NCBI GenBank assembly: GCA_051294905.1 | Contig: CM119373.1 | Span: 5,272,001-5,336,000 of the forward strand | DNA: 64,000 nt | Source of the DNA: Botryllus schlosseri | Lineage: Eukaryota | Reading direction: 5' to 3' | In this document: positions 24,498 through 64,000 of the stretch, piece after piece | Layout: every line of letters starts with the position of its first letter | Position numbering within the stretch: position 1 is the first letter of the stretch | Notes under the pieces: model-generated | Database searches by the model: none | Seen by the model: only the letters and a program-made list of their open reading frames with translations | What the model was told of the DNA's origin: nothing | Made by a program: the position numbers and the translations under genes

Positions 24498-25438
24498 AGT
24501 AGTATAGTAGATCGGTCGCGAATCGCGCTTTTTTGCATGGGTAGTATAGGGTGCGGCGGTGAGGTGCCTGAAAACTCGTCCTGAACCGGTGACCCTTTTA
24601 GACCCCCCTATCGCTGGTGACTTGCCATGTGTTCTTATGGATGCGGTGATGAGGTGACCCCTCGCTGATGACTTTGGCGGTTGAAATCTGTGAGTTGACG
24701 ACACCCCCCTTCCACCCGACCGGTGCCTTATGAGTATAGGGATCTCTCGACCGGTGCCTCGAAACTCGTCTTGAACCGGTGACCCTTTTCGGTATAGGGA
24801 TCACTCAACCGGTGCTAGTATAGCCATCTCTCGACCGGTAACCCTTTTCGGTATAGGGATCACTCGACCGGTGCCGAGAAAACGCGTCTTGAACCGGTGA
24901 CCCTTTTCGGTATATGCATCACTCAACCGGTGTTGAATATGTATCAAGTAAATAGTCATGTGAATGAATCTTTGTTAATGCGTATATCGTGAAAACTCGT
25001 GGTCGTGACTCGCCTTTTTTACTATAGGTGGTGACGGTGATTCGCCTGCCGTGTATTCTTACGGGATCTGTGGTGACTCGCCATGTGTTCTTATGGGTGC
25101 GGTCGCATGCGGCTATTGGGTCTTATGGCGGGGGTGGCGAGCGGCTATTGCGTCTTATGGGTGCGGTCGCATGCGGCTATTGTGTCTTATGGGTGCGGCC
25201 GTGAATCGCCCTTTCGGTATAGGCATCTCTCGCACGTCGTACTTTCGCATGTCGTGCTTTCGCGTATACGCTGTGTTGGTGATTCGCCATGTGTTCTTAT
25301 GGGCGTGGCGGTGATTCGTACTTTCGAGTATAGGCATCTCTCGACCGGTGTTGAATATGTATCAAGTAAATAGTCATGTGAATGAACCTTTGTTAATGTG
25401 TATATCGTGAAAACTCGTGGTCGTGACTCGCCTTTTTT
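24498..25438. repeat. GC-rich internally repetitive block starting AGTAGT; candidate Polinton/Maverick terminal repeat
   Basis: Starts AGTAGTATAGTAG; repeated accggtgacccttttcggtatagggatc and tcttatgggtgcgg units; a ~95-bp direct repeat at ~24926 and ~25344. Confidence 0.5.
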
Positions 25439-30829: not shown

Positions 30830-31280
30830 CCTACCCAAGTCAAAATATCATACTGGTTTGGACAACTGACGTTTACCTGTGTACAATTACCATTTGCCCT
30901 TGGAGGTCAACCGTTACCCGAGTAACAAAACCATTTTCACTTGGAAATATATGTTTTCCCTCAACAACAAACGTTTTTCACTTGGAAATATATTTTTTCC
31001 TGGGTTACAAACCTTTTTCACTTGGAAATATATTTTTCCCTGGGTAACAATCGTTTTTCACTTGGAAATCTATTTTTTCTCCTGGGTAACAAACCTTTTT
31101 CACTTGGAAATATATTTTTACCCTCAGCAACAAACCATTTTTACTTGGTGGTCCGTCGTTTACCTGAGTAAAAATATCATTTTCCTTTGGAGATCCGACG
31201 TTTACCCAGTGTAACAATACATTTTCACTTGGTCATCTATCTTTTCCTAGAGTAACAAAACCACTTTCATTTAGAAATCT
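30830..31280. repeat. Minisatellite, 40-42-bp unit, about 10 copies
   Basis: ttttcacttggaaata recurs every 40-42 bp (30934, 30975, 31015, 31055, 31097...). Confidence 0.85.
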
Positions 31281-32401
31281 GACAAACACACCTGCTAATT
31301 TGGTATTTGTTGTATTGACGACAGTTTGAAATAGATTACAACGAACAGTGACGGAAATATACACGGACTACCAGTTTCAGAGTATTCCCGCATCAGTGGT
31401 ATCACATCAATATCATCGGTTAACCACATGAAATAACAATATGCCGTTGTACACCGAAATGCATGTTTTGGAAAATTGGTCAATAGGCTTCGATAGGTCT
31501 GTGATGTCCGGGTTCGTACTTTAGTTTTTACACAGAGTCCATACGTCTTAATAAAACACCACCTCGGTGATGGCTGGTACATGGATAACGGCGGTCGGAA
31601 ATCGACGAATTTAGGTTCTCGTCGTGCTAACAGTTCCGGGCTACTTGTGATTTTTCTCAAACATGTTTACTATATTGTGTCACTCTTTATTGGTCAATAC
31701 ATATCCCACCGTTCAGTCTGAAATCGGAAACCCGAGAAAGTATTAACCGGATCCGGATATCAACTCTGAATCAAAAAAACCAATGAAACATGTCACACCC
31801 TGTGTTTCCAGGAAAATAACAAGACATTACACATCAAGTATACTTCACGATTGTTCATAGATACCAAGTATTCGAGTAAACGAGGTGTGTGACATTACAT
31901 ACATCATGGATAACATCATGGCCGGCATTACAAGCATCATGGATGAGAAATTCATGTTCTCAAGTCTCGTCATGAACCGACTCTGTACATTCAATGTGGG
32001 GTAGATGACTCGGAGACAGACAAACACCCATGTTTGCCCAGTCTGCATTTCATCTGCCTATAAGTCCACTCTGATAAAATTCAACCAGATAATTAGTTAT
32101 GCAATATCGGTGGATTCGTCCGAGGCTGGGTTAAAGTAGTCTACGCGGCAACGTGTTTCAGAACATGTGATAAAAGATCGACTGACATTGATGTTTCTCG
32201 TTTGGTCACGGTTGAATCAGACGACTGTATCTTCGCAATTTATCGAGTGATGTTGTCCTTGCTACTGTTGTGTCTTTATTCACAAACAAAAATATGCCAC
32301 CAAACAGACAACTACGAGCACTTATAAGCAACGTAAAAGCACCAATTAGTAGACATGAGAAATGATCATTAGACGTGATTGGACTGACGTAATGCACCAC
32401 A

Positions 32402-32411
32402 TCTCCTCCCC
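32402..32411 (-). promoter_or_regulatory. Polypurine tract
   Basis: GGGGAGGAGA on the minus strand, abutting the 3' LTR. Confidence 0.85.
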
Positions 32412-32419
32412 AACTAATA

Positions 32420-35400
32420 CTATAGTTCCTCAATCAAACGTCTAGGTCGTCGTCGTATTCTTTGTGACGGTGGACGCAAAGGCGGCACTGCATTTTCAGT
32501 GTTTTGGCGCACAGGCGGCACTGTATGTTCAGTGTTTTGGCGCTCAGGTGCCAATAGTTCAAGTTCATTGTCAACGTCCGCTACATTATCATTGCTTGGA
32601 ATGATTACCGGTGTAGGGATATTTTCTGTTTCCACTGGTGTTGGACTGGATGGAACACGAAGACGAGGACTTGTCAGACGACGATCTGGTGTTGGTGTCA
32701 TGCTTGTTAATACGACTGGATCGACGATCTCTTCATCTTCCTGGTCGCAAAACCGTGACGCCGACAGATCTCGGATTTGGTCGATATGTCGCTTCCAGAG
32801 TAGGTCACTAACTTGAACGCGATACGTTGCAGGACCCAGCTTTTCGACAATACCTCCTCTTGTCCAGACTGGGGACGCTGTCGATAGTCCTTGACCATAA
32901 CCGGATCGCCCACTTCCTGCTGACGAGACTTAAGAAGTTCGGTCGGTTTGCAAGCTGGATGATCCTTCTGCAACGTGGACTCCAACTGTGGGTGCACTAA
33001 ATGCAATCGTGGCCGCAGCTCCCGTCCGAACATAGCTCTAGCAGGAGATATCTTTGTTGTTGAATGCGGAGTCGTTCGGTAGTGCAGCAACATTGACTGT
33101 AGTCTGTTCTTGATATCTGTTCCTCTGTCCGCTTCCTTCTTTAAAAATTCCTTTAAAACACGAACAAATCGTTCCGCAGAACCGTTGGTTTTGGGACTGA
33201 AGGGGGCAGTTCTAATGTGCTTAACACCATTCCGAGTCAAAAACATTTCGAATTGTTTAGACGTGAAAGGTGGCCCGTTATCACTTACTAGCTCATCCGG
33301 CAGGCCATGCGTCGAGAAAATCTTACCAAGTACGGATATCGTATTTTCAGCAGTAATTGAACTCATCTGATGCACTTCCGGCCATTTCGTCCGAGCATCC
33401 ACTAGTACCAGGAAGTATTTCCCCATACGAGGTCCGGCAAAATCCACGTGTACTCGCTGCCATGCACGAGTTGGCCAGACCCAAGGATTCAAAACTTCCG
33501 GCCTTCTGCTTTCTCATTGTCTGCAGATAGCACAATCTCTAACCTTCTGTTCGATGTTACCGTCGAGATTGGGCCGCCACACATGCATTCTGGCTTTTAT
33601 CTTCATCCTTACGATCTCAGGATGGTGTTCATGCAATAAATCAAGGATCTGCCGTTGATATCGCGCCGGGATAACTACTCGGATACCCCAAAGTAAGCAG
33701 TCCTGCTCGTCTGTCAGTTCGTTCCTGCGCAAATACAACGGTTGATATTCTGGAGATAAGCCGCCAGCGGGCCATCCGTTAATCACATAATAATGTACAC
33801 GAGATAAAAGCGGGTCTCGGCGCGTCGCAAGGCCAATCCTTTTCGCCGTTATGGGTAGATTGTCTACTTGTATTGCATTTATCTCGTTGGCTTTCTGCGT
33901 TGATGGATCCACCTCGGCTGATGCAATCGAGGGACTTCTCGAAAGCCAATCTGCAGTAACATTCTGCTTACCCGGTTTGTAACGAATTTCGTAATTATAA
34001 CACGCGAGTTTGATTGCCCAACGTTGCAACCTGGATACGGCTAGCACGGGTATACCAGTCTTTGGACCTAGAATCATCGTCAAGGGTTTGTGGTCCGTAA
34101 ATAGGGTAAACTTCCTCGCGAACAAGTAGTGTTGGAATCTCTGTAACCCGAATATTATGGCCAGAGCTTCGGTGAGAATAGTTTTTCTCGGCCGGTGACA
34201 ATGTACGAGAGGCGTACGCAATTGGGCGATCACGCTCTCCATCGGGTTGCATGATTACTGCTCCTAAACCATCAGGGGACGCGTCTACTGACAGGGTAAT
34301 CGGCTTATCAGGGTCATAGTGAGCCAACACCAAATCGGAGGTAAGCCAATTTTTCAAAGCTCCGAAGGCCTTTTCACAAGCATCATCCCACTTCCACTTC
34401 ACGTCATTTCTTAGCAAGTTCGTTAACGGTTGCAACAGACTGGATAGGTTCGGTAAAAATTTTCTATGGACATTTACCATCCCGAGAAAAGACCGCAGTA
34501 CACTCACGTTGTCTGGGCGGCAAGCAGAAGTCACTGATCGCAAATTTGAGTTGCTCGGTCGAATGCCATTCTTGTCAATCACATAGCCTAAATATTCCAG
34601 GGACTCTTCCAGGAAACAACATTTGGACTTTTTAGCTTTCAAACCATATTTATCCAAACGATTACATACTGTCGATAGCAGCTCCAGATTTTCCTTCTCC
34701 GAAGACCCGGTGATTAAGATGTCGTCCAGCAAACACGGTACATTCAGTCCTGATCCATCAATTGCTGAAAAATCGCCGGCGCTGATGCCACTCCAAACGG
34801 AAGTCGAGTGTATCTGAACAATCCCAGATGGGTGTTAATCACCACGTACTTACGCGAGTCGTCATCAAGCTCCACTTGCGTGTACGCTTGTGATAAATCG
34901 ATCTTGCTAAAATACGAACTTCTCCTTCCGTTAAGAAGCGCCAGCAAGTCGTCGGGGGTCCGTAATGCATATTCCGGTATATCCAACTGCGGATTAATCG
35001 TAACTTTGAAGTCGCCACAAATACGAACTTCGCCTGACGCCTTAAGAACAGGCACAATTGGACCAGTCGGAGTGCTCAACCTTTTCCAACACTCCAGTAT
35101 CCACTAACCTACGGATTTCTGTTTCCACTTTATCAAGTAAAGCGTATGGCACCTTACGCGCTTTGTAAAATTTCGGAACGGTGTTGGGCTTCATGTTGAG
35201 CCGTGCTTTAATGCCGACAACTTTCCCTAGTTGCGTTTCAAAAATACTAGTATCCCTCAATAGCCTGCTTAGGCAATCTCTCGAATTCCCACTCTGACCG
35301 CTATCCGAGACCAATCCGATTAATTTTGGCAAATTCATTTGTATTTTACGCATCCAGTTCCTACCGAACAACGGCGGAGCTTCCATATCCAAAACAATCG

Positions 35401-36496
35401 AAGGCAATTTACAATCATGTCCCTGATAGCTCACCATCACCACGGTTTTACCCAATACCGGCAGAACTTCGCCACTGTATGCCTTCAATTTAATGTTGCA
35501 TGGCTCCAGCGTCGCAAGAGGAAATTTCTCCCACAGTAAATACTTCGAAATTACGGATACTGCAGCACCTGTATCGAATATCATAGAAATGATAATACCG
35601 TTGATGCCAATATCTACGCGAATCTCATCTTTCCCTTCTACGAAATTGATATTCATCAAGATACTCACACTGTCGTCTGCCGAGGACTCGGAACCGCAGT
35701 CGTCACCGTTACCAGCATCATCAGTTGATTGCTTTTCCGTCGATCCGCTCAAACAGTTAATCTTGCATGCGGTCTTACTCTTTCGCCTTGTACCTTTTCC
35801 GGGGCACATCTTCCTTATGTGTCCGACCCGTCTGCACGCATGACACAGCGCTGTGACCCGTCTGCACGCATGACACAGCGCTGTGCGAAAGATACAGTGG
35901 TCTTCTCCGTGGTTAGATTTCCCGCAGCGCTTGCATTCCTGGTATTCTCGAGCCCCCCGCTGTTCCCTTCGTACCATCGCGGTGCTGTAACTACCAGTAT
36001 CGAAAAGTTGTCTCCCCGCTGCTTCCATTGCGACAGCTTTTTTAACGGCGTCTTCTAAGCTCAAATCATTCTCCAATAGTAAGCGCTCTTGGATAGGTCT
36101 CGAGCGCAGACCGCAGATGAGCCGATCTCGAATTGCTTGGGTTAAGAATGCCCCGAATTCGCAATGTTCCGACAATTTCTTCAGTGCCGCGACGAAGGCA
36201 TTGACAGGTTCACCCTCGTCTTGGACCCGTAGATTAAATTTATACCGCTCTGCCACTAACAACGGCTTCGGCGTAAGATGATCCCCGAGCAATTTAACTA
36301 TTTGTCGGTAACTCTTATCTTTCGGTTTTTCGGGTGTCGAGGGATTTCGAACGAGGCTGTATGCTTTCGACCCACAGACTGTTAGCAAGACAGCTTTCAT
36401 TTTTCCTTCGTCGGTAATACCATTCGCTTCAAAGTAGAGCTCCAAGCGTTCGACATACTCGTCCCACCCGTCTTCACCCAAGTTGAACTCGGACAC
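32420..36496 (-). pseudogene. gag-pol: gag-pol polyprotein broken by at least 4 frameshifts and 1 stop
   Basis: Two CCHC knuckles, protease FDTGA, RT (VRICGDFK, RLPFGVASAP, LDDILI), RNase H (VDAS, TDHKPL), integrase (HxxH/CxxC, HVDFAGP, SDNGPPF, NGSAERF) across ORFs 35042-36496, 34744-35079, 33995-34732, 33514-34242, 32707-33492. Confidence 0.95.
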
Positions 36497-36535
36497 TTTC
36501 CCGTATCCTCCGCTTCCGACCGCAGGAGTTTCGTT

Positions 36536-36553
36536 ATCCCATCCTCGTCGCCA
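36536..36553 (-). promoter_or_regulatory. Primer-binding site, tRNA-Ser(GCT)
   Basis: TGGCGACGAGGATGGGAT, 1 nt after the 5' LTR, complementary to the metazoan tRNA-Ser(GCT) 3' end ATCCCATCCTCGTCGCCA (recalled sequence). Confidence 0.85.
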
Positions 36554-36968
36554 ATGTTGTGTCTTTATTCACAAACAAAAATAAGCCACCAAACAGACAA
36601 CTCCGAGCACTTATAAGCAACGTAAAAGCACCAATTAGTAGACATGAGAAATGATCATTAGACGTGATTGGACTGACGTAATACACCACAGCTACTAAGT
36701 TGCGGAAACAGCAAATATTCGCACAGAATGTTGAGGTTTTATTAAAAAAAACCTTCTATAGCAGATTTCTTGGGTTTAGCGATATTCCAATCAATTTTGA
36801 ACGTCGTCGGCAATCTCAACAACCGATCGCAGTGAGTCTAACACTCTTCAAAAGTGTAGGCCTTCTACGTAGAGCAATTCACTTGAACTAGATTCCAGTC
36901 GAATACCGATTCAAAACAATAACAATCTGAAGTCGAGCATATATCAAGAAACGAGAACACATTAAAGC

Positions 36969-48339: not shown

Positions 48340-51256
48340 CTGTAAGCTGTTTGTAGAAATTTTCTGTTGCCAGTTTTTTTCTATGTTTCATGCAACCTTT
48401 TTACTGCAACTTTTATAAAATATTTCACAAAATGTAAATGAGTGATTTTGAAACGCAAAACAATTATATATAAATGTTTAGACGGTCTCGGGTTAATTCA
48501 GTTTATAAACGCCTCGACTCAAACGCCTACCTGAAATTAGCATGCGAAGCAAGAAGATATTACAGGTTGCTATCGGTAAATAAATATTTGAACAGAGACC
48601 ACATGAAGTGACTCAGAAGACATCTGGTGTGATTCTGAAATATGAAATAATACTTAGTCATCCAGACAAGGCAATCACGCTATGGAACTCACACCCACGG
48701 TTTCCTGGTATAATCTAATCATGGTGGACAGTCAGGAATTTGACTCACTGTAGCTTGCTCATTTAATCCACCACATCATATAGCTTGTACGATGCATGCA
48801 GAGCATGATCTTCGTGGTTTGGCAGTAAACAGCAGTTTATCTCTCAATGACATCGGGCAGTTGCATGAAAGTTTACCAAAGTTGTATTCCAGTAACATTC
48901 CCAGTAATCTCGCCCTTTTCTGTTCCAGTATAATCGCATACTGTCAGGCTTTACCATCTGTTGGTCTAAATTTTCCCTCCTATTTGCTGTGACAAAGCTC
49001 ACCACAGCATCGATTGGACGTAGTGGGACGCAGAGAAAGTTGAGATTGTACTAATCAACAATGAAACCCACTATTCTGACGATGATGACGCCAGTCTCAT
49101 CCATTTCATTAGTTGCAATGCATGCAAAATAGGTCTGGTTATATTCTTTCGATGCAGGGAGGAGATGGAGGGGGGAGCTGATATTTTATTCGGTTCGCGG
49201 GAGGGAGGCTCTGACGAAAAAAGATTGGAAAACGCCGATCTAGACTTTGCGTGACTAATGCGGACATATCAAGCAGTAGGCCGCATAACCCCTCATATGA
49301 CATGACAGTTTCATTACCAGTAAACAGTGCCCAGCAAAACCTTTTATTTAATTTAATGTCTGATACTATTTAGCCTGATTAACTATGAGCCTTGTAATAC
49401 GAGGGAGGTCGCCAAACATTCACGTAATGTGAATGGTGGCACTGGGGTGGAAAGAAGGTATAGAATGACTGTTCTATAGCAAATCTATCATTTGTATCAC
49501 ATTTTGTCGAACCATTGTGATGTCGAAAATGTTCACCTTTTGTTTGCGAATCGGGCTGTATAGCAACACATGGGGTCAACGAGAGCGTATTTATGACTGC
49601 TTTTCAAAACTACTTCCTTACTCGAGTTGTTTTGAAAGACAGCAACTTCTTGAATCCTACTTGAAGCAGTTCTACGCTGATTTAAAAAGCACTGCTTCTA
49701 CTTCCATTAGAGTGGCATTATTGGCTGCTTTCACTACCTCAGATTATTATTATATTATTTAGTCACTGTAAAACTGGGTATTACGCAGGTAATCCGGGAA
49801 GCAGCCTACCCCTTTAGAAAAATAGCGAGATTGAACTAAACCTTTCGTTCCATCCGTAGAGTCGAATTGGTATTCCTATGCACTATATAAGGAGACTAGA
49901 TTACAGAATTGCGGTAGATGAATAATTGAATTGCAGAGGTAGAGATGATTGAAAATGAGGAATCGAAATTTCGCACATTACGTGTGTTTTAGTACAGTGG
50001 TGCGTGCATTCAAGGCCTTTCGAAGAATTCGCACAGTGCCCAATTAAGTGATCTTTTAGGTCATGTTGAATTGAGCATTTTCAGCAATCTGTTGGATATG
50101 TATCATCTGTTTTTTGCTTACGAGCACAGCAGCACAAGTGACTACGGACACAATGTCAACACAATGTGTACATCGCCATATTTTCTCACATTACATTTTG
50201 CTTTGTTTTGTTGTATGTTCTAATAAATTGGAACGGCAAGTTCATTGAAAAAGCATTCTTTTTCTTTTCTGGTTTGATCATGATTACTGGGCGGTTGCTC
50301 TGGATTTCGTGGTTAGTTATGAGTAGGCGTTTTTTGACCTAAAAAAGGAAAATTTTGACCTAAAAAATCGAAACTTTAACTTTTTGAACCTAAACAAACT
50401 GAATTCCGACCAAATTTTGACCTAACGTATGCAAATTAGGTTTTTTCCCACATAATGTTAAAATTGTGGCACTTATCTTCCTTTCTGGTTGGAAATGGCA
50501 GTCCCAACGAAGTAGTTTGGCCTGAAAAAAACATTTTAGGCTTAGAAACGGACAACTTTTTATATGAAAAAAAGAAATATTTCAACGAAGTCTGGCCCTA
50601 TGAAGTATTCCAGTGGTTACAATCAGGGCTGTGGAGACGGAGTCGGGCTAATTTTCGCTTGCTGGAGTCGGAGTCGGAGTCGGAGTCGTGGAAACTGCAG
50701 TGGCTGGAGTCGGAGTCGTGGAAAAAATACTGACTGGAGTCGGAGTTTGTGAAAATGAATAACTATAATAGGATTTTTATGTACCATCAATTACTGTTAT
50801 CAGTATGGCGATTTTTTTTGACATGTCAAAAAAAGTCAAAATAAGGTCAAAATTTTAGCGTTAGGTCAAAAAATGTCAAAATTGACAAAAATTTTCGCAA
50901 CCTGCATTTTATTTTTATCGTAGATTTTGCGCAATCGGTGAACTTATCGTTTGATATTTTACAGTTTGTAGCCTACTTTATAGGCCTACTGTGGCAGACG
51001 GCGCATTGTTTGCTCATTGTGAATCATAAACATTCAAATGAAACAAATGGGTTGACACCGTGTTATGCTCAACGTACCGCAATATTCTAAGTGAAGCAAG
51101 ACTGCGTGGGCATTGCATGGTTCTTACAAAAATCGTGATGTACAACATTGTCAGAATGAAGCAACACGGTGTGTCACCAGCAGTGTACGCACGCACAGCT
51201 TCACTGTTGCCAGCCAATAGCTGCTACAGTTGAACGTTCTTTCTCCATTCTTCTTG

Positions 51257-51537
51257 CTGTTGTTGTTCGTATATTCATGGTGTTTGTCGACTACAATGGT
51301 CATTTACACCAGGCCGATATTCCTTATTTTCGATTCCATATCCGCCGAGACTCTGCCGACTTGTAGCACGGCCCACTTCTATGCTTTTTGTAAGACACCG
51401 CTTACGCGGATGAGATAAGGAACCTAGATAAACCTTCAACACTTGGGTAGGAATTCTGGAGTCGACCTCGGTCGGACTAGAACCTAAACCCCATTGGTGT
51501 TGTAGCTGTGGATTATTCCACTACGCTATCTCGTCAC
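51257..51537 (-). mobile_element. SINE family A copy
   Basis: Complete copy ending ctacgctatctcgtc (tRNA-like head on the minus strand); absent from the sister element at ~53900. Confidence 0.8.
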
Positions 51538-51591
51538 ATCTTCATCCTTGGCAAGCTACTTAGTAAAGACAGACACTTTTTACCCGAGAAC

Positions 51592-51619
51592 CAGGGATAT
51601 CTAGAACTAGATATCCCTG
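51592..51619. mobile_element. 28-bp TIR-only hAT-like insertion
   Basis: cagggatatctag-aa-ctagatatccctg hairpin; 8-bp TSD ccgagaac/ccgagaat; empty site in the sister copy at ~53855-53870. Confidence 0.75.
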
Positions 51620-52006
51620 CCGAGAATGCAGAAAAGTATCTTTCGTTGTACTACAACACATTTTAATTATTTTCACCATAGTACATCATGTACTGGAATT
51701 CATCATAGGGCCAAATTTTGTTAAAATAATATTTCGTCATGTAAAAATTCGTCAGTTTTTGAGTCAAACAAGTTTTTGAGGGAAAACTACTTCGTAAGGA
51801 CAGACAATTCAAACCAGAAATGAGGATAAGTAGTAAAATTCTAACATCTTTTGGGAAAACACCTAATTTGCATACGTTAGGTCAAAATTTGGTCAAAATT
51901 TAGTTTTTTAAAGTCAAAAAATGTCAAAATTTGGATTTTTTAGGTCAAAATATTTCGTTTTTTAGGTAAAAAAAAAATCGCCCTAGTTATCAGTAAAGAT
52001 ACAGAT

Positions 52007-52859
52007 CAGGGGCAGCCAGACCATGCTCCACGGGCCAAATGTGGCCCACGAGAAGGTTTTGTGTGGCCTGCGAGGTAATTCTCGAAATTAGACATAACAT
52101 CACGTAAAAATGCAAGAACAACCCAAATTTGATTAGCCTGACCGCGAATTTTGATGATGACTAAAACATCAGTTTCGACTCATTGGCATAACCATGCATC
52201 AGCCACATTCATCGCAGATCTTCTTGTATGACCAAAAGTAGAATATTATGTGGCAGATTTGTTTGACTTGAAATTTTTCTTAGCACTTCGCATGATTTAC
52301 TGTCACATTTCTTGTGTTTAGTATTGTAAACCCTCCTGGAAATCATAAATACGCGTAATTTTCAGAATTGAGTCCAACTATACTCGCAATTAGGAGATAA
52401 CGTGTCGTCCAGCATGCGACTTCGCTTGTGCGCTAGAAGCGAGATCGTCGGCGATGAAACATTTGCACAAAATGGCAGAGTTATGTTCACCGAGACCGTC
52501 GATATTGCTGTGTCTAAAACGATAAATAATCCTGTCCGACAAATGAGCCCATTGCTATGCAGAGGCGACCCCCAATATATGCAAGTAATATATTTATTGA
52601 TCGAATTCATTCATTACCTTTGAAAAAATTCGTGCTTCGCACGACCAGGGCATGACTGCACACTATATTTGCAGACTGAGTTTTCATGATATAATTGTTA
52701 TCACTTTTAAGCGTAGTAATATAAATTTTATTTTCAATGTTACCGAATTCGGTTCGTTCCTATCGGGCGACTAAAAATAGGTAATCAACATTCAAGTGGC
52801 CCGCGCTATGGTTCGTAAACCTCATGTGGCCCTTTGACCGAAAAGGTTGGCCACCTCTG
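52007..52859 (+). mobile_element. hAT MITE
   Basis: caggggcagcca / tggccacctctg; related to the 19437, 20846 and 29236 elements. Confidence 0.75.
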
Positions 52860-55800
52860 ACATGGATAGAATTGGACATTATTTGCAAATTACAATTCAA
52901 TTGCATAGAGGAAGAAGGGAAGCAATATGCATCTTCGCGATGCAATCACAAATTGATGCAATTTTTGGAATTATACCATGATATTGTGACAGAGCCAATA
53001 TATATCGTCGGGTTGTAAAATTGATATAAATATAACCATACGCTACTTCCACTTCAAAAATTAAAAATATTTGCAGTGTACCTTAGCTGCTTGGGTCAAA
53101 CAAATGATTCAGAAAGACTACAAGTCCTAGTCTTTGAATACTTGACTAAGTAGCCTACATGTAGACTAGACATATGCTATTTGACTACTTCCTAAATTTC
53201 GTTTATGACCAATGTATCTTAGTAGTGAGAGTGTGTGACTGTGTGTGCTTGTAATCAGTACGATGTGTAATACGGAAATTAGTAAGATGCATCTCTGTAT
53301 TAGTTGCTGACTCATACACAAGAGCAACACTACCATTGTTTTATCTACATTTTAATTATACAGGATGGGATATATGTCGTGTTTGAATGATTCATACATA
53401 TTAGGTTATCAGAGAGTCCAGTCCATGTTATAAAAACTGATGAAATATCAAAAAAGGAAGGAAATTTTGAAAGGCCATCTTTCATGCATAGTGAGTAATT
53501 CGAGTTGTGCCCCAATGAAACAATTTTGTATGCCATATCTTTAATCATGGTTATATGATAGTCATTTAACCGTCACTGTGGCATATCATTTTCGAAGTAA
53601 ATTGATAATACTGTTGGAATCAGGGTTGTAGTCGGAGTCGTTCGTTTTAAAGACTCAGGAGTCGGAGCCGTAGTCTGAGTCGGTAAGTTTAAAGACTCGG
53701 GAGTCGGAGTCGGCGTCGGTCCATTGTGAATGTGAGAAGTCGGAGTCGGAGTTGGAGTCGGTGGTAAAGTTTACCGACTCCTCAGCCCAGGTTACAATAC
53801 GTATTATGGTAGAAATGTTTAAAAAACAATTGTAATACAACGAGAGATACTTTCCTACATTCTTGGGTGGAAAGTCCATGTCCTTGCTAAGAACCTTGCC
53901 AAGGAAGTTCAACAGCAGCAGTTGTTGGCTGACAGCACTCAAGTTGTGCGTACACTGCTGGTGACACACCCTGTTGCTTCTGACAATGTTGTCAACATCA
54001 CAATTTTTCATCATGCTCTTCTTAATATAAGAATGATGCAATGCCCAAGAATTCTTTCTTTAGTTAGGATATTGCGGGACGTTGACCATAACACCATGCC
54101 TACCTATTTGTGTTATTTGACCGTTTATGATTCACAATTAGCAGACAATAAGCCGTTTACAACGGTAGGCCAACAAAGTAGGCTACCAGCTATAAAATAT
54201 CATATGATAAGTTCACCGACAGTTCAAAATCTACAATTTTGACCTAACGCTACAATTTTGACAGAATTTTGACAAATTTTGACATGTCAAAAGAAAACTG
54301 CCCTAGAAGAGTGGTAGGCCTATATGACACAACATTTTCATTTGGTCGTTTTCTGACGTTTTCTGTTTATTGTTATTGTGACACAACAACAACAGTGACG
54401 TCCATATCTTGTTCAGGTTTGTGCGGCACGACAGTGCATTTCAAGTTCAGCGTGTCTGCTTTAGGTCGGGGGGACGACATTTCATACTCGCTTACTTCCA
54501 ATCTTCATTCACTTTTGCTTTCAATAATCCACTTTCAGGTATCTAGCGCCGAGTCTAGAGCTTGTCTCAGTCTTCTTTTCGGCTTTTCAAGACGCTGGAA
54601 GCTCATCCAAGTAATATGACGTCTCTTTCATTGCCCTATTGTGGCTGCTTTAACGCAAAAATGCACGAGTGAAATTGCCGGTGCAAAAATCCCGGGTGTT
54701 GAAGCTAGAACGTCGAAATTAGTTTGCACTGATATCGATAGCAGGAAAAGTCTTTCAAAAAGAGGACATATGGTACGCCCATGTTATAAGAACTAATATC
54801 CACCGTGCCGCCTTGTTTCAGATCCGGATTTGTGATATCGGGGGGCGATGTCGCTGTTCTCCGGAGTTCCGCTCTCCGGAGTTCCACTCTCTATTGTGGA
54901 AGTTGATTGGAAGTTGTGCAGGATATTGACCGAAGACTGCATAAATAGGCATGCATTCACAGTTGCTTTAGATTGATTGATCAAAACACCATCGCCATAA
55001 ATTATGTTCTGGGATATGTTGAGCATCATAGCGATTTCACAACGGGTTGCATTCGTTACATAATACATAAATAGAAAGCATTACACCTGAATGAGTAATA
55101 CATAGCACCATATTGCATATTCCAGGCATTTTGTATGCGACCGCAAACGTACAGATGTCGCGGTATAGAGGATGTAGAGTGGATACCTACGATTCAGAAT
55201 GCATGCTGGTAACAAATGGAAATGGCATATTATAATTGTAACTCAGGGGGATCTTTGTAAGGTGCCAGAGATATTCTTCGTCCATGGAATGATGTTACCA
55301 TCGCCAAAGCCGTATCAGCTAAGGAGTAATAGTAATGTTTGGCTTAGGAGAATAGCTTATTTCAAACAAAAACACTTTTAAACGGTAATCAATTTTAGCA
55401 TGTCAATAATGCTTTACTAAAGCGTACTTCTGAAATCTCAAATCAGGCCGCGGGCCGCAAAATATGACCTCACAGCCCTCGTGTTGATGACACCCGCCGT
55501 ATTATGCGAGCCAAATGAATTGAAAAAAGTTTGGTGCACATATATGTGCATTTGATATGGTTGAATAATACATTCATATATATTATGTCATATTATATAT
55601 TTTGTGCTGATTCCCATCAGAGGGTATATTTAAACATTTGCTTTACGAAAGTTGTGTTAATGAGATTTATAGAATTCTAAAACGTGCCCTACTTATGACA
55701 AGCAGATACATTAGACGTAATTCAAATCAAGAGTATGAATATATATGTTGTATTTGCATTGATGAGAGCAGTTCAAGGATACACCGACCGTATCTGGGAT

Positions 55801-56799
55801 CTCCAATGCAATACATCTGGTGAGTAGTACTCTGCATTTGCTTACGGTGATTGACGGTTCATGACAATGCAGGTAGGTTGGACAATGTCTCCACGATATT
55901 TATTTGTCAAATGAAGTCACAATGGCTTATTCCGACGTTAAAATGTGACTTAATAGTCACTCGAATTTCACAAACCACGGAAGTGGTTCGCATGTCAGCC
56001 GTGACAGAACTTGCAATAACTTATAGATTTGTTTGTTAGAGCCATTTTCCTCAACGTTTATGAAGCGATGAACCGTTAGCTGGACACCGCAGACTAATCT
56101 AGAGTGGAGTAACACTACTGTAAAATTTACCTGCAGTATTGATAAGGTGGCTTTCTGAGGAAATCGGATATTGAGAAACAAAATCCCAGATGTTTATATT
56201 TAATTTCAATCAACTACATCATTCGGACTGCCTCAATCGCCTTCCTGGTTATCGATATCAGCCATACTGAAAACGAATAATGGTGGACTGATCGGGAAAA
56301 GGGCGATGCATTTTACTGAGTAAACTCTTTTAATATTGCAAAAACTTGAATCTCGATCTTAAGAAAATAGATATCAGCGATAATGAAGATGTTGGTAATT
56401 TCAGCTAAGAATGCGACATACAAAGCTCATGCATACAACAACATTTTTGAACTGTCATTTGGGTAATATAGGACACTCGCTCTAGAGCAGGGCTCTTCAA
56501 CCGGGTGTATCGTACACCCTATGGTGTACCAAAATTTTAAAAAAGTGTACCGCTCAGATGAGGGGAATTGGGGTGTACCATCTCCGCATTAAAATAAACT
56601 AACGAGTCGTTAGTAACGACTATAGGTATCACATTAAATAGGCAATTCAATGCTTCAGGACATGTTGACTGGGTGTGCAATATCGTATAATGTTCAGTTG
56701 TTCATATTAGCTGTACGCAGCTTGTGAATTGCATTCCTACACTGTAAAAATTATTGTTGTAAATTTACGACAAAAAGCCTGGTGATTTCCAATACAGGC

Positions 56800-56980
56800 T
56801 TACAACCATAAGCTTGCAAACTCATTACAAGCTAACAGCCATAAGCCTGTAAGCTCACTACAGCCATAAGCCTGTAAGCTCACTATACAGCCACAACCCT
56901 GTAAGCTCACTACAGCCATAACCCTGTAAGCTCACTACAGCCATAACCCTGTAAGCTCACTACAACCATAAGCTTGTAGC
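56800..56980. repeat. 25-bp subterminal tandem repeat
   Basis: cagccataa(g/c)cctgtaagctcacta repeated about 5-6 times. Confidence 0.9.
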
Positions 56981-57583
56981 TCTCTCTCTTTCTCATACCT
57001 ATAATCTTGCACCTGATACCGGCAGTACTCGACAGTACAACTGACATGATGCACGGTGGTCATGATTGTTCACAAATCAATAGAAAGAACAGGCATTTTG
57101 TATACAGCAAATGAATATGAAGCAGAAGCAACACATGCAGCAGGAACAGTAGATACACCAGCAGTCAGCACAGTACAATAACACAGTATGGAACAATAAC
57201 AAAAGTGTCACGACTTGGCCATCAGAGACCTATGTTAATAAGATTGAAGAGGTCAAAGTAAAGGCAAGATCACATTATTCAGCATGGGAACGTGGGTATA
57301 TGTCATGATTTATTGCTCAGGGGCAGCAATTGCCACGTGCTGATACTTCTCGTAGTATAGTAAATGAATGGAAAGTACGCAAGTACTCTGAAACAGTTAA
57401 TTTGGCCAGATACTAACTTATTCCACTTCTATTTGTACTTTACAGAAGTAGCAGAGTAAAAATTAAGTTTAGAGCAGTTCAAAATGTGATTTAGCACTAC
57501 AAAAAAGCTAAATTTTCTTGATAACTGATCATTCTTTACATCAATGTCCATTAGTTGTAAAATCAGTCGAATCACTTTCTATA

Positions 57584-60141
57584 TCACATGTTATCACAGA
57601 TTGTAGTGACTGCAGATGGTACACGCAGTCCCTTGATTTTGCCAATGCAGATGGATAAGAAATGCAATGTGTTATTCACACTGCGCTCGAATTGGATATT
57701 AAATACCCAATGCAGGGATAGAATGATAGCCAAAGCATATGCAAAATCTACAACGTCATTAATCTCAATCCCATCAAAGTGTACCGTCCATATCTTTTTC
57801 CCAGTGTCCAAATGTATGATTGGGTTTGGTGATTCCGAAACATCCTGAAAAGAAAGGTACATCTGTATATTGAAAGGCAATGAGAGTAGTACGACTACGA
57901 GAGTAATTTTTTATCAAACAGGTGTAATTGGTCCAACAATGACGAGTACAGCACTTACTAACACACTGGTTCTCAACCGGTATGCCGCGACACACTAGTG
58001 TGCAATCTATGTCTCGCAAGGGTGCTTCAAGAGATTTCTTCTACATAGGAAATTATGCGCGAAATACTTCCAGTCTTTATACAGCAAATGATCATTAATC
58101 TAAATCGGCTCTATCTGACAAATCACAATTGCTGTCATGCCCAATGTTCCCTCTAAGCTGCGCACAAAAAATTCGAAGTGATAACCTTTTTTTTCGTGGT
58201 TACGTACTGTTGTCCAAGTAACCGCGCAGTGAGTGTGTGCTGACTCGTAAAAATTAGAGGGAACATTGGTCCCGCCCGCAATCAATACCCCGCTCGAATT
58301 CGCTTTACTCGGCATATCCTCATCGTCTTCCTAATTACCAGCGAGAAATGAACCCACTTGGAAGTGACGGTCCCGTTCAAAAATTTGACGAACATAGCCA
58401 TCCACATTGCGATTGTTAGGTAGCGTATCAGTACTGCCGTTAAAATGTAGGCGCGAAGTGCAACGTAACGTTATGTTACAGGTGCCGAATATGAGAATTG
58501 AAAAGTATAGTTGATCAAATTATATCAGCTAACACATTTCCCCGTCCCAGTTTGTTGGAACTATAATTGAGCTGCAGGTGGCTGCCAATAGAACTACAGC
58601 AGTGGTTCTCAACCGGTGTGCCGTGACAGATTTCTTCTAAATTTTGAAATTATGTGCAAAATAATTCTAGGATGTAGGAAATGATCAGTATACTACATAA
58701 GACTCGATTTGAAGTTTGTACATATGACAAAACGAAATTGCTGTCATGCCATCGTGTGCTCGAAAGGCTGAATTCAGCAGACATGGCGCCACCTGTGTGA
58801 CAATGCAGTATTCTGGCAGTTTACAGAGGCGTCAAAAAATGTTGCGATCCACTGTGCTAGTGTGCCGCAAACTATTTTCAATTTTCAAAGGGTGCCGCAA
58901 GGTCAAAAAGGTTGAGAACAACTGAACTACAATATTGAGGTATTGCTATCCTCACACGTATTACACGATCTGCGAGGAAATGCGTTAGGCGTCCATGTAT
59001 ACGCCTCTGTATTTGGTAGCGATCGTGTTTGGCCTCTTCAGAGCAATGGTTAATTACATTGCCAATGCGGAAGTGGGCTGAGCTTATTGTCTAACTAATA
59101 TATCGGACTCTTGGCTTATAATGATCGCAGCAAGGTTATATTCATAGTAATGCAATGACGGTATGTATTTGGTACGAACCTGATCTATAACCAAAAATTT
59201 GTCGTATGACTCTTTGAACATTGCAGGCATACCGACCATCCAATTTATTTTCACAAAATCTGAAAAAAATTCTTATTTTTAGACATCCAATAATTTGTAT
59301 TCTTGAAGCATCGTACCCATCACAGCTGTAATGCTGGTTGGCACACGACTCCAGTTTATTTTTGTCGCGTGCTTAGAGAATATTTCTTTTTCTTGGATAT
59401 TGTCCAGTATATTCAGACCATTGTTTATGATCTTCATCTCCTCCAATAGCTGAAACATCAACAATTACCAGTGAACAGAAATCGAACAAATGATATTTTT
59501 CTTACCCAATATGATTCTCTCAGCGGATATTCAATAAGAATTTCAGCAGTTGGCATGCAGGCTTCTATGTCAGACCGGCGACCTTTGAAGGTGGCTTTCA
59601 TGGATTGCAATAGCTCTCCCTTCGCTGGGTTTGACGCACTCGATTCCGACAATATGAATGCCTTGTGTTCAGCTGAACTTTTATCATTGGTCAACGATTC
59701 TATTTCCTGAAATTTTTAGTTGATATGAATCAGTGGTTCTCAACCTTGAGGCTTCCTTGAAATAGCAGTTTCATACTTCGTCCGCAACATCAGAACTTCT
59801 GGGTTTCTTGCATCGTGGGCTTGCCGTAGGCGATTCTTCAGCAGGAAGCCGTCTCCGCGGGCCAGTCCGTCTTAACTTTTTTTCTGTTTGCTAGGAGAAC
59901 CGGGTCGTCTGTGTCTTTCATTTTCCGATGCTCGTTATATATTTTGTCGTTGAGTCTCGTTATCCATGAGTACTAAAATGTATCGAATTTGACAGAGTGT
60001 GATATTTCCACACTGCAAGCCTCAAAACTTACATATGGCGGAAGAAAATTATCTTCAACAGCCGTAACTAATTTCAGAATTGGATATTTCCGAATTAGAG
60101 CTGAACATGCCTCTTTTCTCGCATGCGTTGGCGGAGAAAGT
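57584..60141 (-). CDS. Spliced SAMD3-like (EnSpm accessory-type) gene. Exons 60141-60033, 59972-59777, 59706-59506, 59449-59317, 59259-59180, 57844-57584; 5' exons unresolved; one 1-nt frameshift.
   Basis: Canonical AG/GT with 56-70-nt introns and compatible phases. Motifs ACSALIRKYPIL, YSWITRLNDKIYNEHRK, MKATFKGRRSDI...ILIEYP, GMPAMFKES and ALAIILSLHWVFNIQF...TLHFL resemble, from memory, SAMD3-like proteins of animal EnSpm elements. Confidence 0.7.
58600..58924. mobile_element. hAT-Charlie MITE in the last intron; related copy from ~57965 with nested MITE 58142-58269
   Basis: cagtggttctcaacc / ggttgagaacaactg; TSD aactacag/aactacaa. Confidence 0.8.
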
Positions 60142-62039
60142 CTGAACAAAAAGTTCACGTATATAATCAACCTCATTGCACTAAAATTGGTACACAGTGA
60201 GTTGGGCTGTTGAAGTAACAGAGCTGAACTGGAGTAAAACATGGCCATAGCATCTGAAGGGAGCACAAAGCCACAATCGACGGGAATTATTTTGCGCCCC
60301 GTGCGATTTGCCCCACAACTCATAATTAATTATTGCCGCATATAATTCAAATTTAACATTTGAAAATTTTCTCAGCAATAGCCATAACCTTCCTTGCCAT
60401 CAGACTATCCGTGTCCATGTCTGATAACCACTGCACTAGTATATTAATCACTAGAACAGCCATTTTCTGCACCCGAGCTGAACTTGCCTGTGTTCTTGAT
60501 ACGAGGGCGGATAATGTCGTAATGGAAGTTTACATGTTTTATGTTATTAAAATCAACGTAAATGCGCCAAATGTCAGTTCGGCACTCAGCGCTCAGCACG
60601 GTGTGAGCATGTAGGTTATAGTTGTCACAAGTCACAATGTGCTTCGGGAAATAGTACCTAATAACACTGATGGGTAGTGAGTAATGAAATACTTATAATT
60701 TTTCAAATAAGTTGAGGTAGCGTTGGTACAACTTTGTGTCACTTTCCGAGTGAAACAGCATGAAATAACCATCACAGTCACAATCAATTTTCGAAGATTT
60801 TAACTTATTTGTAGCGTCATTATCAGTCATTTTCCATTAGTCGTGAATAGGTATCTTGCAATTTCGAAAGCAGTCAGTACCGATTGACAGCTAAAATCTT
60901 GTTAAACGTTCACCAAACATATATCTTACAAAATACTTACTCGACTGTCGACTACATCTGTTTGTTTTCTTCCGCAGTATAGAGGCTACGAGATCAGTCA
61001 TGATTGATGAAACATTGTTGCGTTGTTCTGACTATTGCAGACCACAGGGTAGGCCTACATCTCCAGCACTTTGACATATCACCTGCAAGATAAAATTGTG
61101 CTGAATTCTACACCATCAAGTATATCCGATGGCAGAGTATCTTACCAATTTTGTGTCATTAATAGATTCACAATGCTGACACATCAATTGGAATTACACA
61201 GACCATATACAAGGCAAATCTGTCACTTTTGAAGCATCTGTAACACAAATATGCCAAGTAATTAATCAACTAGACCTGTGAGGCCGAAATTTTAAATTTA
61301 CCTGAATTTCTCTTTAAATTCAATTTTAACTGGCCGTCGTTGGAATCAGCCATCCCAGACAACATCTTAGTAACAGTAACCAATGCTGGCATCGTCTACT
61401 TCATGGAATACGTCCGCTATAGCAAACAGGACTAATTCTATATTCTGCAAAGTCACCAAATCACATATAATTTTTCTACGTACCAATCTCTTGGCTGCAG
61501 TTATCAATTGAGCACGACTGCACAAGAATATATAGGCTATATAATATAGCCATCGCAGCGGTGGAATCCCTTTCAATAAGATAATACTGACTGAAAAACT
61601 TGCCAATTTTCCGGGCTCTGCTGTACTCTCACTACGTATTCGCGCCATCTACTACACAAAACGAATTAAGCCGGATATGACGTCAAAGGGTTCTCACTAA
61701 AGGTGAATGACGCACAACCTCATAATCTGCACATAGATACTACGTCTCTAACACTTCCTATCTACAAATGACGCGACACATAGCAGCCCTCAATAAGATT
61801 CGGCCTGACTATGATCTCGACTCAAGCTGCAACAAACGCTACAGCTGACGGCAAAGCTTCTGCTGTCCAGTGAAGCCGAAACGAAAGGAATCGGCAGGCA
61901 ACATTTTGGCGGACTTTTACCGAACTGTTCAAGGTTCAACCGCGGCCGTGTCTTTATTTTGTACAATATGCATTAACGATCTGTGATTAAAGTAATAATG
62001 ATGAAAAATAATGACCATAATACTTCTGTTGTCTTGAGT

Positions 62040-63410
62040 ATGCCTGCGGTATGTATGGAGTATTATGGACTACGTTTCCAGTAGGACATCAAATCTGGGG
62101 CGTATCTAGGGTGTGTTCGGATTATGTTGTCAATCGGAAACCATGTCTGCGGTATATCTGGGGTGCGTTTGGGCTGTGTTATTTCCACTCGAACATCAAG
62201 ACTAGAGTGTGGCCTACGTGTCCACTTAATCATCTTCATGTCCAATAAACCAATGATGATGTCTGCGGTATGGCTGATGTATGTTGGGGCTGCGTTGGCC
62301 CCCGTGGATCAGACCTGGGTCATGTCTGGGGTGTGTTTGGACTGCTTAGACACTCCGACAGCATGTCTGCAGCATATCTGGAGTATAGGCTCGGACTTCG
62401 TAGTCAATCGGACATCATGTCAGGGGTGTTTACGGATTGCCTCGACACTCAGACATCATGTATGGGGCATGTCTGGGGTGAGTTTGCAATGCGCTGACAC
62501 TAGGACATCGTGTTTGGGGCATGTCTGTGGTGTGCTATAACTGTGTTGTCACTCGGAAATCATGTCTGAGGCATGTCTGGGACGTGTTCGTTATTCTCTG
62601 TCGACACTCAAAGATCATGTCTGGGTCATGTCGGGGGTGCGTTCGGACTGCGTTGACGCTCTGACATCATGTCTGAGGCATGTCTTGAGCTGGTTCCGAC
62701 TTCGTTGCCAATCGAACATAATATCAGGGGTGTTTTAGGACTGCTTTGACACTCAGACATCATGTCTGGGGAATGTCTGGGGCATGTCTGGGGTCAGTTT
62801 GAACTGCGTTGACACTCTGACATCATGTCTGAGGCATGTCTGGAGTAGCTTCCGACTTCGTTGCCAATCGAACATAATATCTGGGGTGTTTTAGGACTGC
62901 TTTGACACTCAGACATCATGTCTGGGACATGTCTGGGCATGTCTGGGGTGAGTTTGAACTGCGTTGACACTCGGACATCATGTCAGAGGCATGTATGGAG
63001 TAGGTTCAGACTGCATTTCAACTCCGACTTCGTGTCTGGGCATATCGAATGTGTGTTCGAACTGCGTTGTCACCGGAATATCATGTCTGGGATATGTGTG
63101 GCGTGAGTGCTGCGGTCTTCGTTTGAGACACGAACATCATGTATGGCAAAAGTCTGGGGAGTGTTCGGACTGTGTTGACACAGGACATCATGTTTAATAA
63201 ATGTTTGGAGTATGTTCGGACAGGGTTGCAGATCGAACATCATGCCGGGTGAGTTTGGACTTCGTTTCAACTCAAACGTCATGTCTGGGTCATGTCTTGG
63301 TCATATCCGGGGGTGTTCGACCTGCGTTGCCAGTCCGACATCATGTATGAGGTATGTCTGGAGTATAAGTTCAAACTTCGTTGTACATTATTGGACATCA
63401 TTTCTGAAGC
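62040..63410. repeat. Complex ~40-52-bp tandem array with a ~156-bp higher-order repeat, rich in CATGTCT
   Basis: Unit gacatcatgtctggggcatgtctggggtgtgttcggactgcgttgacactc; 62661-62816 is repeated from 62817. Confidence 0.9.
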
Positions 63411-64000
63411 ATGTCAATTTACAAGCACGACAGCTTGTTATGTGCCTGCATTTGGCGTTTACAACCTCCACAAGCTTGCAGTCCGCCATTACAAGCTGAT
63501 TACAGGGTACTTTACAACAATAATTTTTACAGTGTAGTGTGATGTTGTAAGAAAATGCTTCTCTTCATTTAATCGTTGGTAATGGACTTATTGGTTCGTT
63601 TTGGAGTAGTACTGGATGGATTTACCATGTGTTCAGCTTGCTGAATCTGTCTATAATGATTCTTGAGGAAACCGCCGCTAGAACTCAGGCATTTGGAATT
63701 GGTAGGCTATTTCCTGCAAGATGCTTATAAATAGCGCAATCTTCATATAATTGCAGGGGTACCGGGAAGGGGGTCGAGTTTGACAAGCACTGTACAAGAT
63801 GGTGGTCCGGTAACCTCGTGGTCAGATTGGTATTTAGAATTTCCAATATGTTGCAGCCTTGCTGATCCTTATTTCAACAGTCCAGAGCGGCCAACCTGCA
63901 GACGTACGGTCGCATGCAGCCAATAAACAATAGGTATGCGGACCTCGTCACATAATTAAATTAGCGAGTGCGGCGGCCGTCAACATGCAATTTGGAATAC

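Follow-up and report, generated by a model that had tools for sequence, protein, structure and literature searches.

p53 is known to restrain transposons, and its sites are found in several elements. Such sites are described in LINE-1 and ERV promoters (PMC5031199), and the zebrafish EnSpm-N6_DR family (Micale et al. 2012, PMC3485254) is an animal non-autonomous EnSpm-type transposon with p53 half-sites in many copies. As reported there, the element is 346 bp long, contains two full response elements and acts on neighbouring host genes; 14 of the 27 tested fragments were p53-responsive, so that the precedent named in the sequence-only reading of the present locus holds. In the mouse genes Rbl2, Ncoa1 and Klhl26, an imperfect tandem repeat with fast turnover multiplies half-sites near the transcription start (Simeonova et al. 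2012, PMC3386156). These clusters are described as lying within a few kb of the start, and the Rbl2 cluster (6/7 perfect half-sites in 117 bp) is supported by reporter and ChIP proof and, in the account given of it, belongs to no previously described repeat (PMC3386156).

Two plant systems are also close in architecture. The Spm-encoded protein TnpA is reported to bind dense clusters of a 7-10-bp motif and to activate cognate copies, TnpA-like proteins being described there as present only in flowering plants and the binding domain as usually fused to the transposase in animals (bioRxiv 10.64898/2026.08.24.746577). The Chenopodium element Jozin (PMC8978399) carries a tandem array within a CACTA-type element. 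No report of a p53-site array in an EnSpm element of an invertebrate chordate was found among the open-access papers searched.

The array described here lies in a stretch of 64,000 nucleotides from Botryllus schlosseri (hereafter the window), in which all coordinates are given (Table 1). It is almost certainly a fuzzy minisatellite within the 5' end of an EnSpm/CMC-like transposon that is multi-copy and has no transposase, and it lies upstream of the transposon's spliced gene. The terminal inverted repeats are perfect over 24 bp and start with CACTG, as expected from the CAC(T) start of the EnSpm/CACTA and CMC/CMCT clade, and direct and inverted subterminal repeats are found at both ends of the element, as in EnSpm/CACTA. 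TTACAR occurs at 9 places in 56742-56949 and at 6 places in 63419-63527, counts that include the copies in the terminal inverted repeats. Target-site duplications of 2 bp are known in animal EnSpm elements. CMCT elements are described as having CA..TG termini and target-site duplications of 2-5 bp (PMC12730594), a range that holds the TA duplication of this element, unlike the 3 bp of plant and fungal EnSpm. Because none of the 94 element reading frames of at least 40 aa has a transposase match in Pfam, the element lacks a DDE transposase gene and is taken as non-autonomous; it is called EnSpm/CMC-like by its ends only. The same Pfam search of the 94 frames found no MDM2/SWIB-like cargo, and one sub-threshold zinc-finger match in a repeat frame was rejected as domain evidence.

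Table 1. Position of the element, its gene and its repeat array within the window
Feature	Position	Strand	Basis or remark
EnSpm/CMC-like element	56740-63534		6,795 bp; array near the 5' end (relative to the gene)
Left TA target-site duplication, 2 bp	56738..56739	.	matches 63535-63536
Right TA target-site duplication, 2 bp	63535..63536	.	
Terminal inverted repeat, starts CACTG, element 3' end relative to the gene	56740..56763	+	100% complementary
Terminal inverted repeat, element 5' end	63511..63534	-	inverted-repeat search
Subterminal repeats, 25-bp units, TTACAR in both orientations	56795..56982	.	motif differs from the 52-bp array
Subterminal TTACAR repeats, 5' end	63419..63510	.	
Last coding exon, 86 aa	57587..57845	-	13 HMMER matches; X8 loose end at 59179 matches the exon start
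Nested MITE-like insertions, last intron	57960..58925 (approximate limits)	.	inverted ends seen
Internal coding exons	59180..61237	-	X8 spliced joints and translations; some edges predicted
Internal exon limits	~61237-61146, 61082-60949, 60141-60033, 59971-59777	-	
Internal exon limits, continued	~59704-59526, 59460-59317, 59259-59180	-	
Putative first coding exon, ATG at 61353	61302..61353	-	predicted; in phase with the next exon; no confirming joint among those listed
CRE-like words (TGACG, four; the one at 61678 is a full palindrome)	61678..61850	.	between gene and array
Fuzzy 52-bp minisatellite, 26 units	62083..63443	.	mean pairwise identity 0.63
Recent 156-bp higher-order repeat, 2.5 copies, 91% matches	62617..63012	.	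5 of 8 perfect half-sites inside
Sole zero-spacer full p53 consensus site	62925..62944	.	unit with an extra sub-repeat, one base short in the G-run

In run X4, contig depth is 164-191 over the element and 21.7 for the piece that bears the flank, which suggests several copies of the element, although depth gives no copy number. The array is covered over its full length by contigs of all three covering runs (X2, X4 and X8); thus, it belongs to the element family and not to one copy alone. Within the array, at 62818-62974, the summed X4 contig depth reaches 2933 compared with about 170 in the element body, and the contig ends there are diverged units; related arrays are therefore probably present in other families or in short derivatives. 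A separate depth spike in X4, X2 and X8 at 60306-60462, in the long intron, is probably a fragment of another high-copy repeat.

Each unit of the array is made of a 15-bp near-palindrome (box A, for example at 62754-62768), an 11-bp box B and a 26-bp spacer; the cut that ends the last unit is arbitrary, the array running on into the subterminal repeats. For box A, 29 strand-matches within 3 mismatches were found window-wide, all inside the array, against 1.75 expected. Box B is a direct copy of the 3' arm of box A and carries the perfect p53 half-site. A 52-bp unit thereby contains the 7-bp arm ATGTCTG three times, as an inverted pair and a direct copy 11 bp further on, and the perfect half-site is this direct copy plus the preceding purine run and C. 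Since box B has been lost in 4 units and gained as an extra copy in 2, the sub-repeat evidently slips. Near the other end of the element, at 57043-57055, a lone reverse-strand copy resembles the centre of box A by eye and may be there by chance.

Several other roles for the array were considered and rejected. A coding role is disfavoured by frames that have no Pfam match and by unit lengths that are mostly not multiples of 3. For a structured RNA, no Rfam match came near threshold (one match, 23 bits against 90), and for a DNA hairpin the folding z-score was -1.14, with 9 of 100 shuffles folding equally well. An origin of CATG by CpG deamination is unsupported, CATG being the majority state in the consensus. 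Both 52 and 11 bp are near multiples of 10.5 (coherence 0.65), but this helical phasing is uncontrolled and a consequence of just two numbers. In a metagenome scan, the box A plus box B pattern matched one locus and no related element; the locus is an unrelated 11-bp minisatellite (L001, 1237-1398; 14.7 copies, 96%) built from the 11-base word that forms the centre of box A.

The minus-strand gene of the element may be the accessory gene 'SAMD3-like ORF2', and its middle exons may resemble a helical DNA-binding domain. In contigs of X8, a run that is RNA by guess only, the introns at 59259-59317, 59705-59776 and 61080-61144, all with CT..AC ends, are missing (among the 15 of 61 joints listed), and among these same joints X2 and X4 have none of the kind; thus, some copy of the element is transcribed and spliced. 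Three lesions break the copy in the window: one stop within the 61146-61237 exon, another at 61032-61034, and one base too many in a T-run at 59877. The last two read differently in X8, X2 and X4 contigs. The last exon has 13 HMMER matches at E<=0.001, of which 11 are credible; P0011 and P0012 look spurious and were excluded from the last-exon alignment. The nearest Atlas clusters are eukaryotic, with Chordata commonest, and none of the 9 relatives looked up has an informative name. The search found no longer or full-length relatives of the gene product, and none of the 94 element frames rose above the Pfam curated cut-off, so that no DNA-binding domain was found in the accessory protein. The array lies 0.7-2.1 kb upstream of the putative ATG, and the segment between them is likely the proximal promoter region, to judge from its CRE-like words. 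Element ends and gene mapping together confirm the earlier placement of the array 5' of a minus-strand gene inside a transposon.

All eight perfect RRRCWWGYYY half-sites listed in the sequence-only reading (62465, 62517, 62569, 62676, 62780, 62832, 62925 and 62935) are present and agree with the p53-type half-site consensus, and the many near-matches that it had described at 11-bp spacing are likewise found within the array. The eight sites fall within 480 bp, among about 30 CATG words. Like the mouse clusters of Simeonova and colleagues, they are clustered in an imperfect tandem repeat less than 10 kb upstream, as measured from the putative ATG. Dinucleotide shuffles of the array contain 0.28 sites on average and never reach eight (0 of 2000). 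The whole window has 18 half-sites where 13.8 are expected, a count reached by 19 of 100 shuffles. The dinucleotide shuffle is the wrong null for the array, however, because its sites are copies of one repeat unit: the eight half-sites are one motif amplified, not eight gains. When single 52-bp units are shuffled, 235 of 20,000 (1.2%) contain a perfect half-site, and after amplification to 26 units at 17% divergence 134 of 20,000 shuffled units give at least 8 sites. Perfect half-sites are absent from the window's 17 other tandem arrays; short arrays at 30920-31278 (40-42 bp units), 24734-24932 (59 bp) and 25084-25198 (32 bp) have none. One such array is thus uncommon, yet expected many times in a repeat-rich genome. 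The lesson is general, in that counts of consensus matches in a tandem repeat overstate the evidence.

Conservation among units was measured in 20 of the 26 units, three higher-order copies and three ragged units having been dropped, with columns matched by base class and CpG columns excluded. The tests are in part post hoc and compare related units of a single decayed copy, in an alignment anchored on box A; the p-values are therefore indicative only. It had been proposed that CATG cores no better conserved than the rest of the unit would speak against a p53 role. The outcome is mixed: the cores are somewhat better conserved than base-matched columns (0.869 compared with 0.799, p=0.027), but the excess comes from A/T (p=0.047) and not from C4/G7, for which both boxes over 20 units give p=0.126. 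For the perfect half-site alone (box B), C4/G7 conservation is 0.735 against 0.757 (p=0.62), and half-site B as a whole is kept no better than background (p=0.30). Substitutions in its flanks are not biased towards staying in the purine/pyrimidine class (10:11 compared with 56:63, p=1.0). In the 11 central units, C4/G7 of both boxes are kept in 36 of 40 cells against 91 of 121 spacer C/G cells (p=0.034, cells not independent); in edge units they are kept in 13 of 22.

The part that is best kept in central units is the left palindrome arm (32 of 33 cells, compared with 90 of 121; p=0.002, cells not independent), which is in no usable p53 half-site and is as conserved as the CATG cores (52 of 56 in these units). 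Two post hoc comparisons over the 20 of 26 units point to the arm as well: the three 4-base arm cores score 0.891 against 0.820 (p=0.004) and the two direct 7-mers 0.869 against 0.805 (p=0.006). Throughout the array, A/T columns are kept better than C/G (0.82 compared with 0.75). At position 3 of half-site A, 24 of the 26 units have T, a non-consensus base, and a single unit has a purine. In one X4 contig (depth 235), two box-A palindromes are joined at a distance of 24 bp with no box B, and at some contig ends of related units TGTCTG persists while CATG reads CGTG; both suggest that related arrays keep the arm more than the half-site. Six cross-copy substitutions fall in the array and none in a CATG core among the 40 of 169 rows listed, too few to score.

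The spacing of the half-sites is mostly not that of a canonical p53 site. The zero-spacer pair reported earlier is present in the window but is not fixed, since X2 and X8 contigs carry an extra G behind 62934 (X2, one contig, depth 10.5/10.5; X8, two contigs, depth 62.5/187.9); the count is 0/1121 in X4, where the listed pieces may not span the site. Zero spacing at this site is thus either polymorphic or an assembly slip. With the extra G, the site becomes a pair of perfect half-sites with a 1-bp spacer; the full 11 bp is present in the sister unit of the higher-order repeat. Of the nine pairs with both CWWG cores intact and a spacer of 0 or 1, eight are at 1 bp, with 1-4 flank mismatches, and one is at zero, so that the zero spacer is not the dominant form; of the arm-to-arm distances, 20 measure 11 bp and one measures 10 bp. 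One X8 contig has box A followed directly, at spacer 0, by a perfect half-site. A 1-bp spacer falls within the loose p53 definition of 0-13, and for human p53 it is reported to leave in-vitro binding at 0.83 with transactivation down 45% (PMC2518093). Activity of p73-beta is reported to fall by 90% at this spacing (PMC6696488), and 1-bp-spaced or lone half-sites make up 1.1-5.1% of 7705 human p53 peaks in the set described in PMC7735755. Because the 1-bp spacer allows partial p53 activity, binding by p53 is possible.

The reading that we prefer, tentatively and with a probability of roughly 0.35, is that the motif cluster is read by a protein that the element encodes. The array grew by slippage of the 7-bp arm ATGTCTG; on this reading, binding by a protein would be what preserves the arms more than the spacers. 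The reader may be the accessory gene product, or a transposase DNA-binding domain supplied in trans, and the dense cluster could be used to activate or un-silence the element's own promoter, as with TnpA of plant Spm. In the simplest version, the TTACAR repeats of both ends would be read by the transposase, and the array, present at one end upstream of the accessory gene, by that gene's protein; the p53 match would be a by-product, and a p53-family protein may bind it weakly. Consistent with such a reader are the unit structure, the gains and losses of 11 bp, the arms that are better kept than base-matched columns and the prevalence of 11-bp spacing although 10-bp variants arise through slippage of the G-run. 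Against it, the array is found at one end only and its motif is unlike the two-ended repeats, TnpA-like proteins are reported from flowering plants alone (bioRxiv 10.64898/2026.08.24.746577), homogenisation by slippage could yield the same conservation pattern, and the CATG cores (p=0.027) and central C4/G7 (p=0.034) are conserved, as p53 binding predicts. A protein of the element's own had been the third option in the sequence-only reading; it fits the anatomy slightly better than p53 does, but a DNA-binding domain was not found among the 94 frames.

Nearly as likely as an element-encoded reader, though doubtful when taken by itself, is a neutral minisatellite, that is, slippage debris carried by the element without selected binding, in which the arms look conserved owing to homogenisation by the 11-bp sub-repeat and to a higher mutation rate in C/G and CpG-rich columns of the spacer. 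If the unit decays neutrally, a mean of 7.8, 5.5 and 4.4 sites is left at 15, 20 and 23% divergence, with probabilities of at least 8 sites of 0.54, 0.155 and 0.049, so that the eight observed are compatible with it. Three of the eight lie in recently duplicated units, the flanks of half-site B have no class bias (10:11 compared with 56:63), the A/T advantage (0.82 compared with 0.75) is array-wide, the L001 minisatellite of the same 11-base word has no perfect half-site, and tandem arrays inside CACTA elements have been described (PMC8978399). What neutral drift explains less well is that the arm excess survives base-class matching (p=0.004-0.027), that the array is full-length in contigs of three of three covering runs and that it lies directly upstream of a transcribed gene. 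Binding by host p53/p63/p73 tetramers to box A plus box B across the 1-bp spacer is unlikely, if only a little more so, although a tetramer could well bind a cluster of this kind; under it, DNA damage or the germ-line setting might turn the accessory gene on or off, or p53 might be titrated by the copies. The eight perfect half-sites and the eight pairs with intact CWWG cores (1-bp spacer, 1-4 flank mismatches) are what it predicts, and a perfect half-site is obtained in just 1.2% of shuffled units. The conserved CATG cores (p=0.027), the central C4/G7 (36 of 40), the X8 contig with box A and a perfect half-site without spacer, the partial binding and transactivation at 1 bp (0.83 and down 45%, PMC2518093), the zebrafish and mouse precedents (PMC3485254, PMC3386156) and a motif described as conserved from sea anemone to man (PMC5031199) are also in its favour. 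The same proposal has to contend with the rarity of such spacing in human peaks (1.1-5.1% of 7705, PMC7735755) and the 90% loss of p73-beta activity (PMC6696488). Moreover, the zero-spacer form has not spread (one of nine pairs at spacer 0 or 1) and is not fixed, C4/G7 of the perfect half-site is at background over 20 units (0.735 compared with 0.757) and at 13 of 22 in edge units, and position 3 of half-site A is still the non-consensus T in 24 of the 26 units. If box A is taken as one half-site, its core has a gap of 5 bases, and AT gaps of that length are reported as unbound in the assays described in PMC6696488.

For the coupling or decoy role proposed earlier, motif, position and precedent thus stand, but the mostly 1-bp register and the background-level C4/G7 of the perfect half-site do not suit it; such a role is possible, not favoured. 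The spacing and the conservation pattern fit another DNA-binding protein or repeat drift at least as well as p53. A more specific proposal, which we consider quite improbable, is that an EnSpm family wired its own accessory gene to host p53/p73 through an expandable minisatellite in which slippage of the G-run toggles between 1-bp (weak) and 0-bp (strong) pairs. Less probable again is a host Smad (TGF-beta/Nodal) enhancer: on the minus strand the arm includes CAGACA, which would make the array a natural CAGA-box multimer. There are 15 perfect CCAGACA and 28 CAGAC words in the array compared with 8 p53 half-sites, CAGACA is reported to bind Smad3/Smad4 (PMC2760791), and some contig ends of related units keep TGTCTG with CGTG in place of CATG. 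The A just before the Smad word, however, is one of the most strongly kept bases (0.90 and 0.94), although a CAGA box can do without it, and a 5-6-base match is easily obtained after the fact. Since a Smad CAGA multimer fits the letters too, a short unit of this kind matches known factors easily.

Probable mobile-element remains lie in other parts of the window as well. Frames on the minus strand at 32400-36600 resemble, by eye, gag, protease, reverse transcriptase, RNase H and integrase of a frame-broken, Gypsy-like LTR retrotransposon. Long inverted pairs (210, 168 and 60 nt) with GGAGTC repeats at 50330-54300 are likely nested non-autonomous DNA transposons, and CACTG-like or similar end fragments lie outside the element at 49764 and about 56115, for which no partner was found. 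On the plus strand, a 227-aa frame at 9619-10302 with Laminin_G_3/pentraxin matches (E 6.8e-15 and 2.7e-09) is probably a host gene exon.

If the accessory protein is the binder, its family of unnamed animal transposon proteins would gain a first target motif from the array; if the array drives the transposon's own gene through p53, it would be a clean, testable case of an element reading host damage signalling. Among known systems, the Botryllus element is like EnSpm-N6_DR in type, as an animal EnSpm-like non-autonomous transposon with p53 half-sites. Unlike the zebrafish element, it is 6.8 kb long, and its half-sites lie in a 26-unit minisatellite, mostly in the 1-bp register, and face the element's own gene. 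As in mouse Rbl2, an imperfect repeat has multiplied half-sites; unlike there, half of each pair is non-consensus. The array resembles plant Spm/CACTA in superfamily, as judged by the ends, and in packing a short motif densely close to one end of the element, on the upstream side of an element gene, whereas the effects of TnpA are reported at both termini (bioRxiv 10.64898/2026.08.24.746577) and the 52-bp array is one-ended, apart from the TTACAR repeats. The array of Jozin is described as made of 171-bp-type monomers near the 3' end (97.7-98.8%, PMC8978399), compared with fuzzy 52-bp units at the 5' end here. p53 sites in EnSpm and half-site clusters in fuzzy repeats are thus already published; the Botryllus locus has a minisatellite internal to a transposon, in a non-canonical register.
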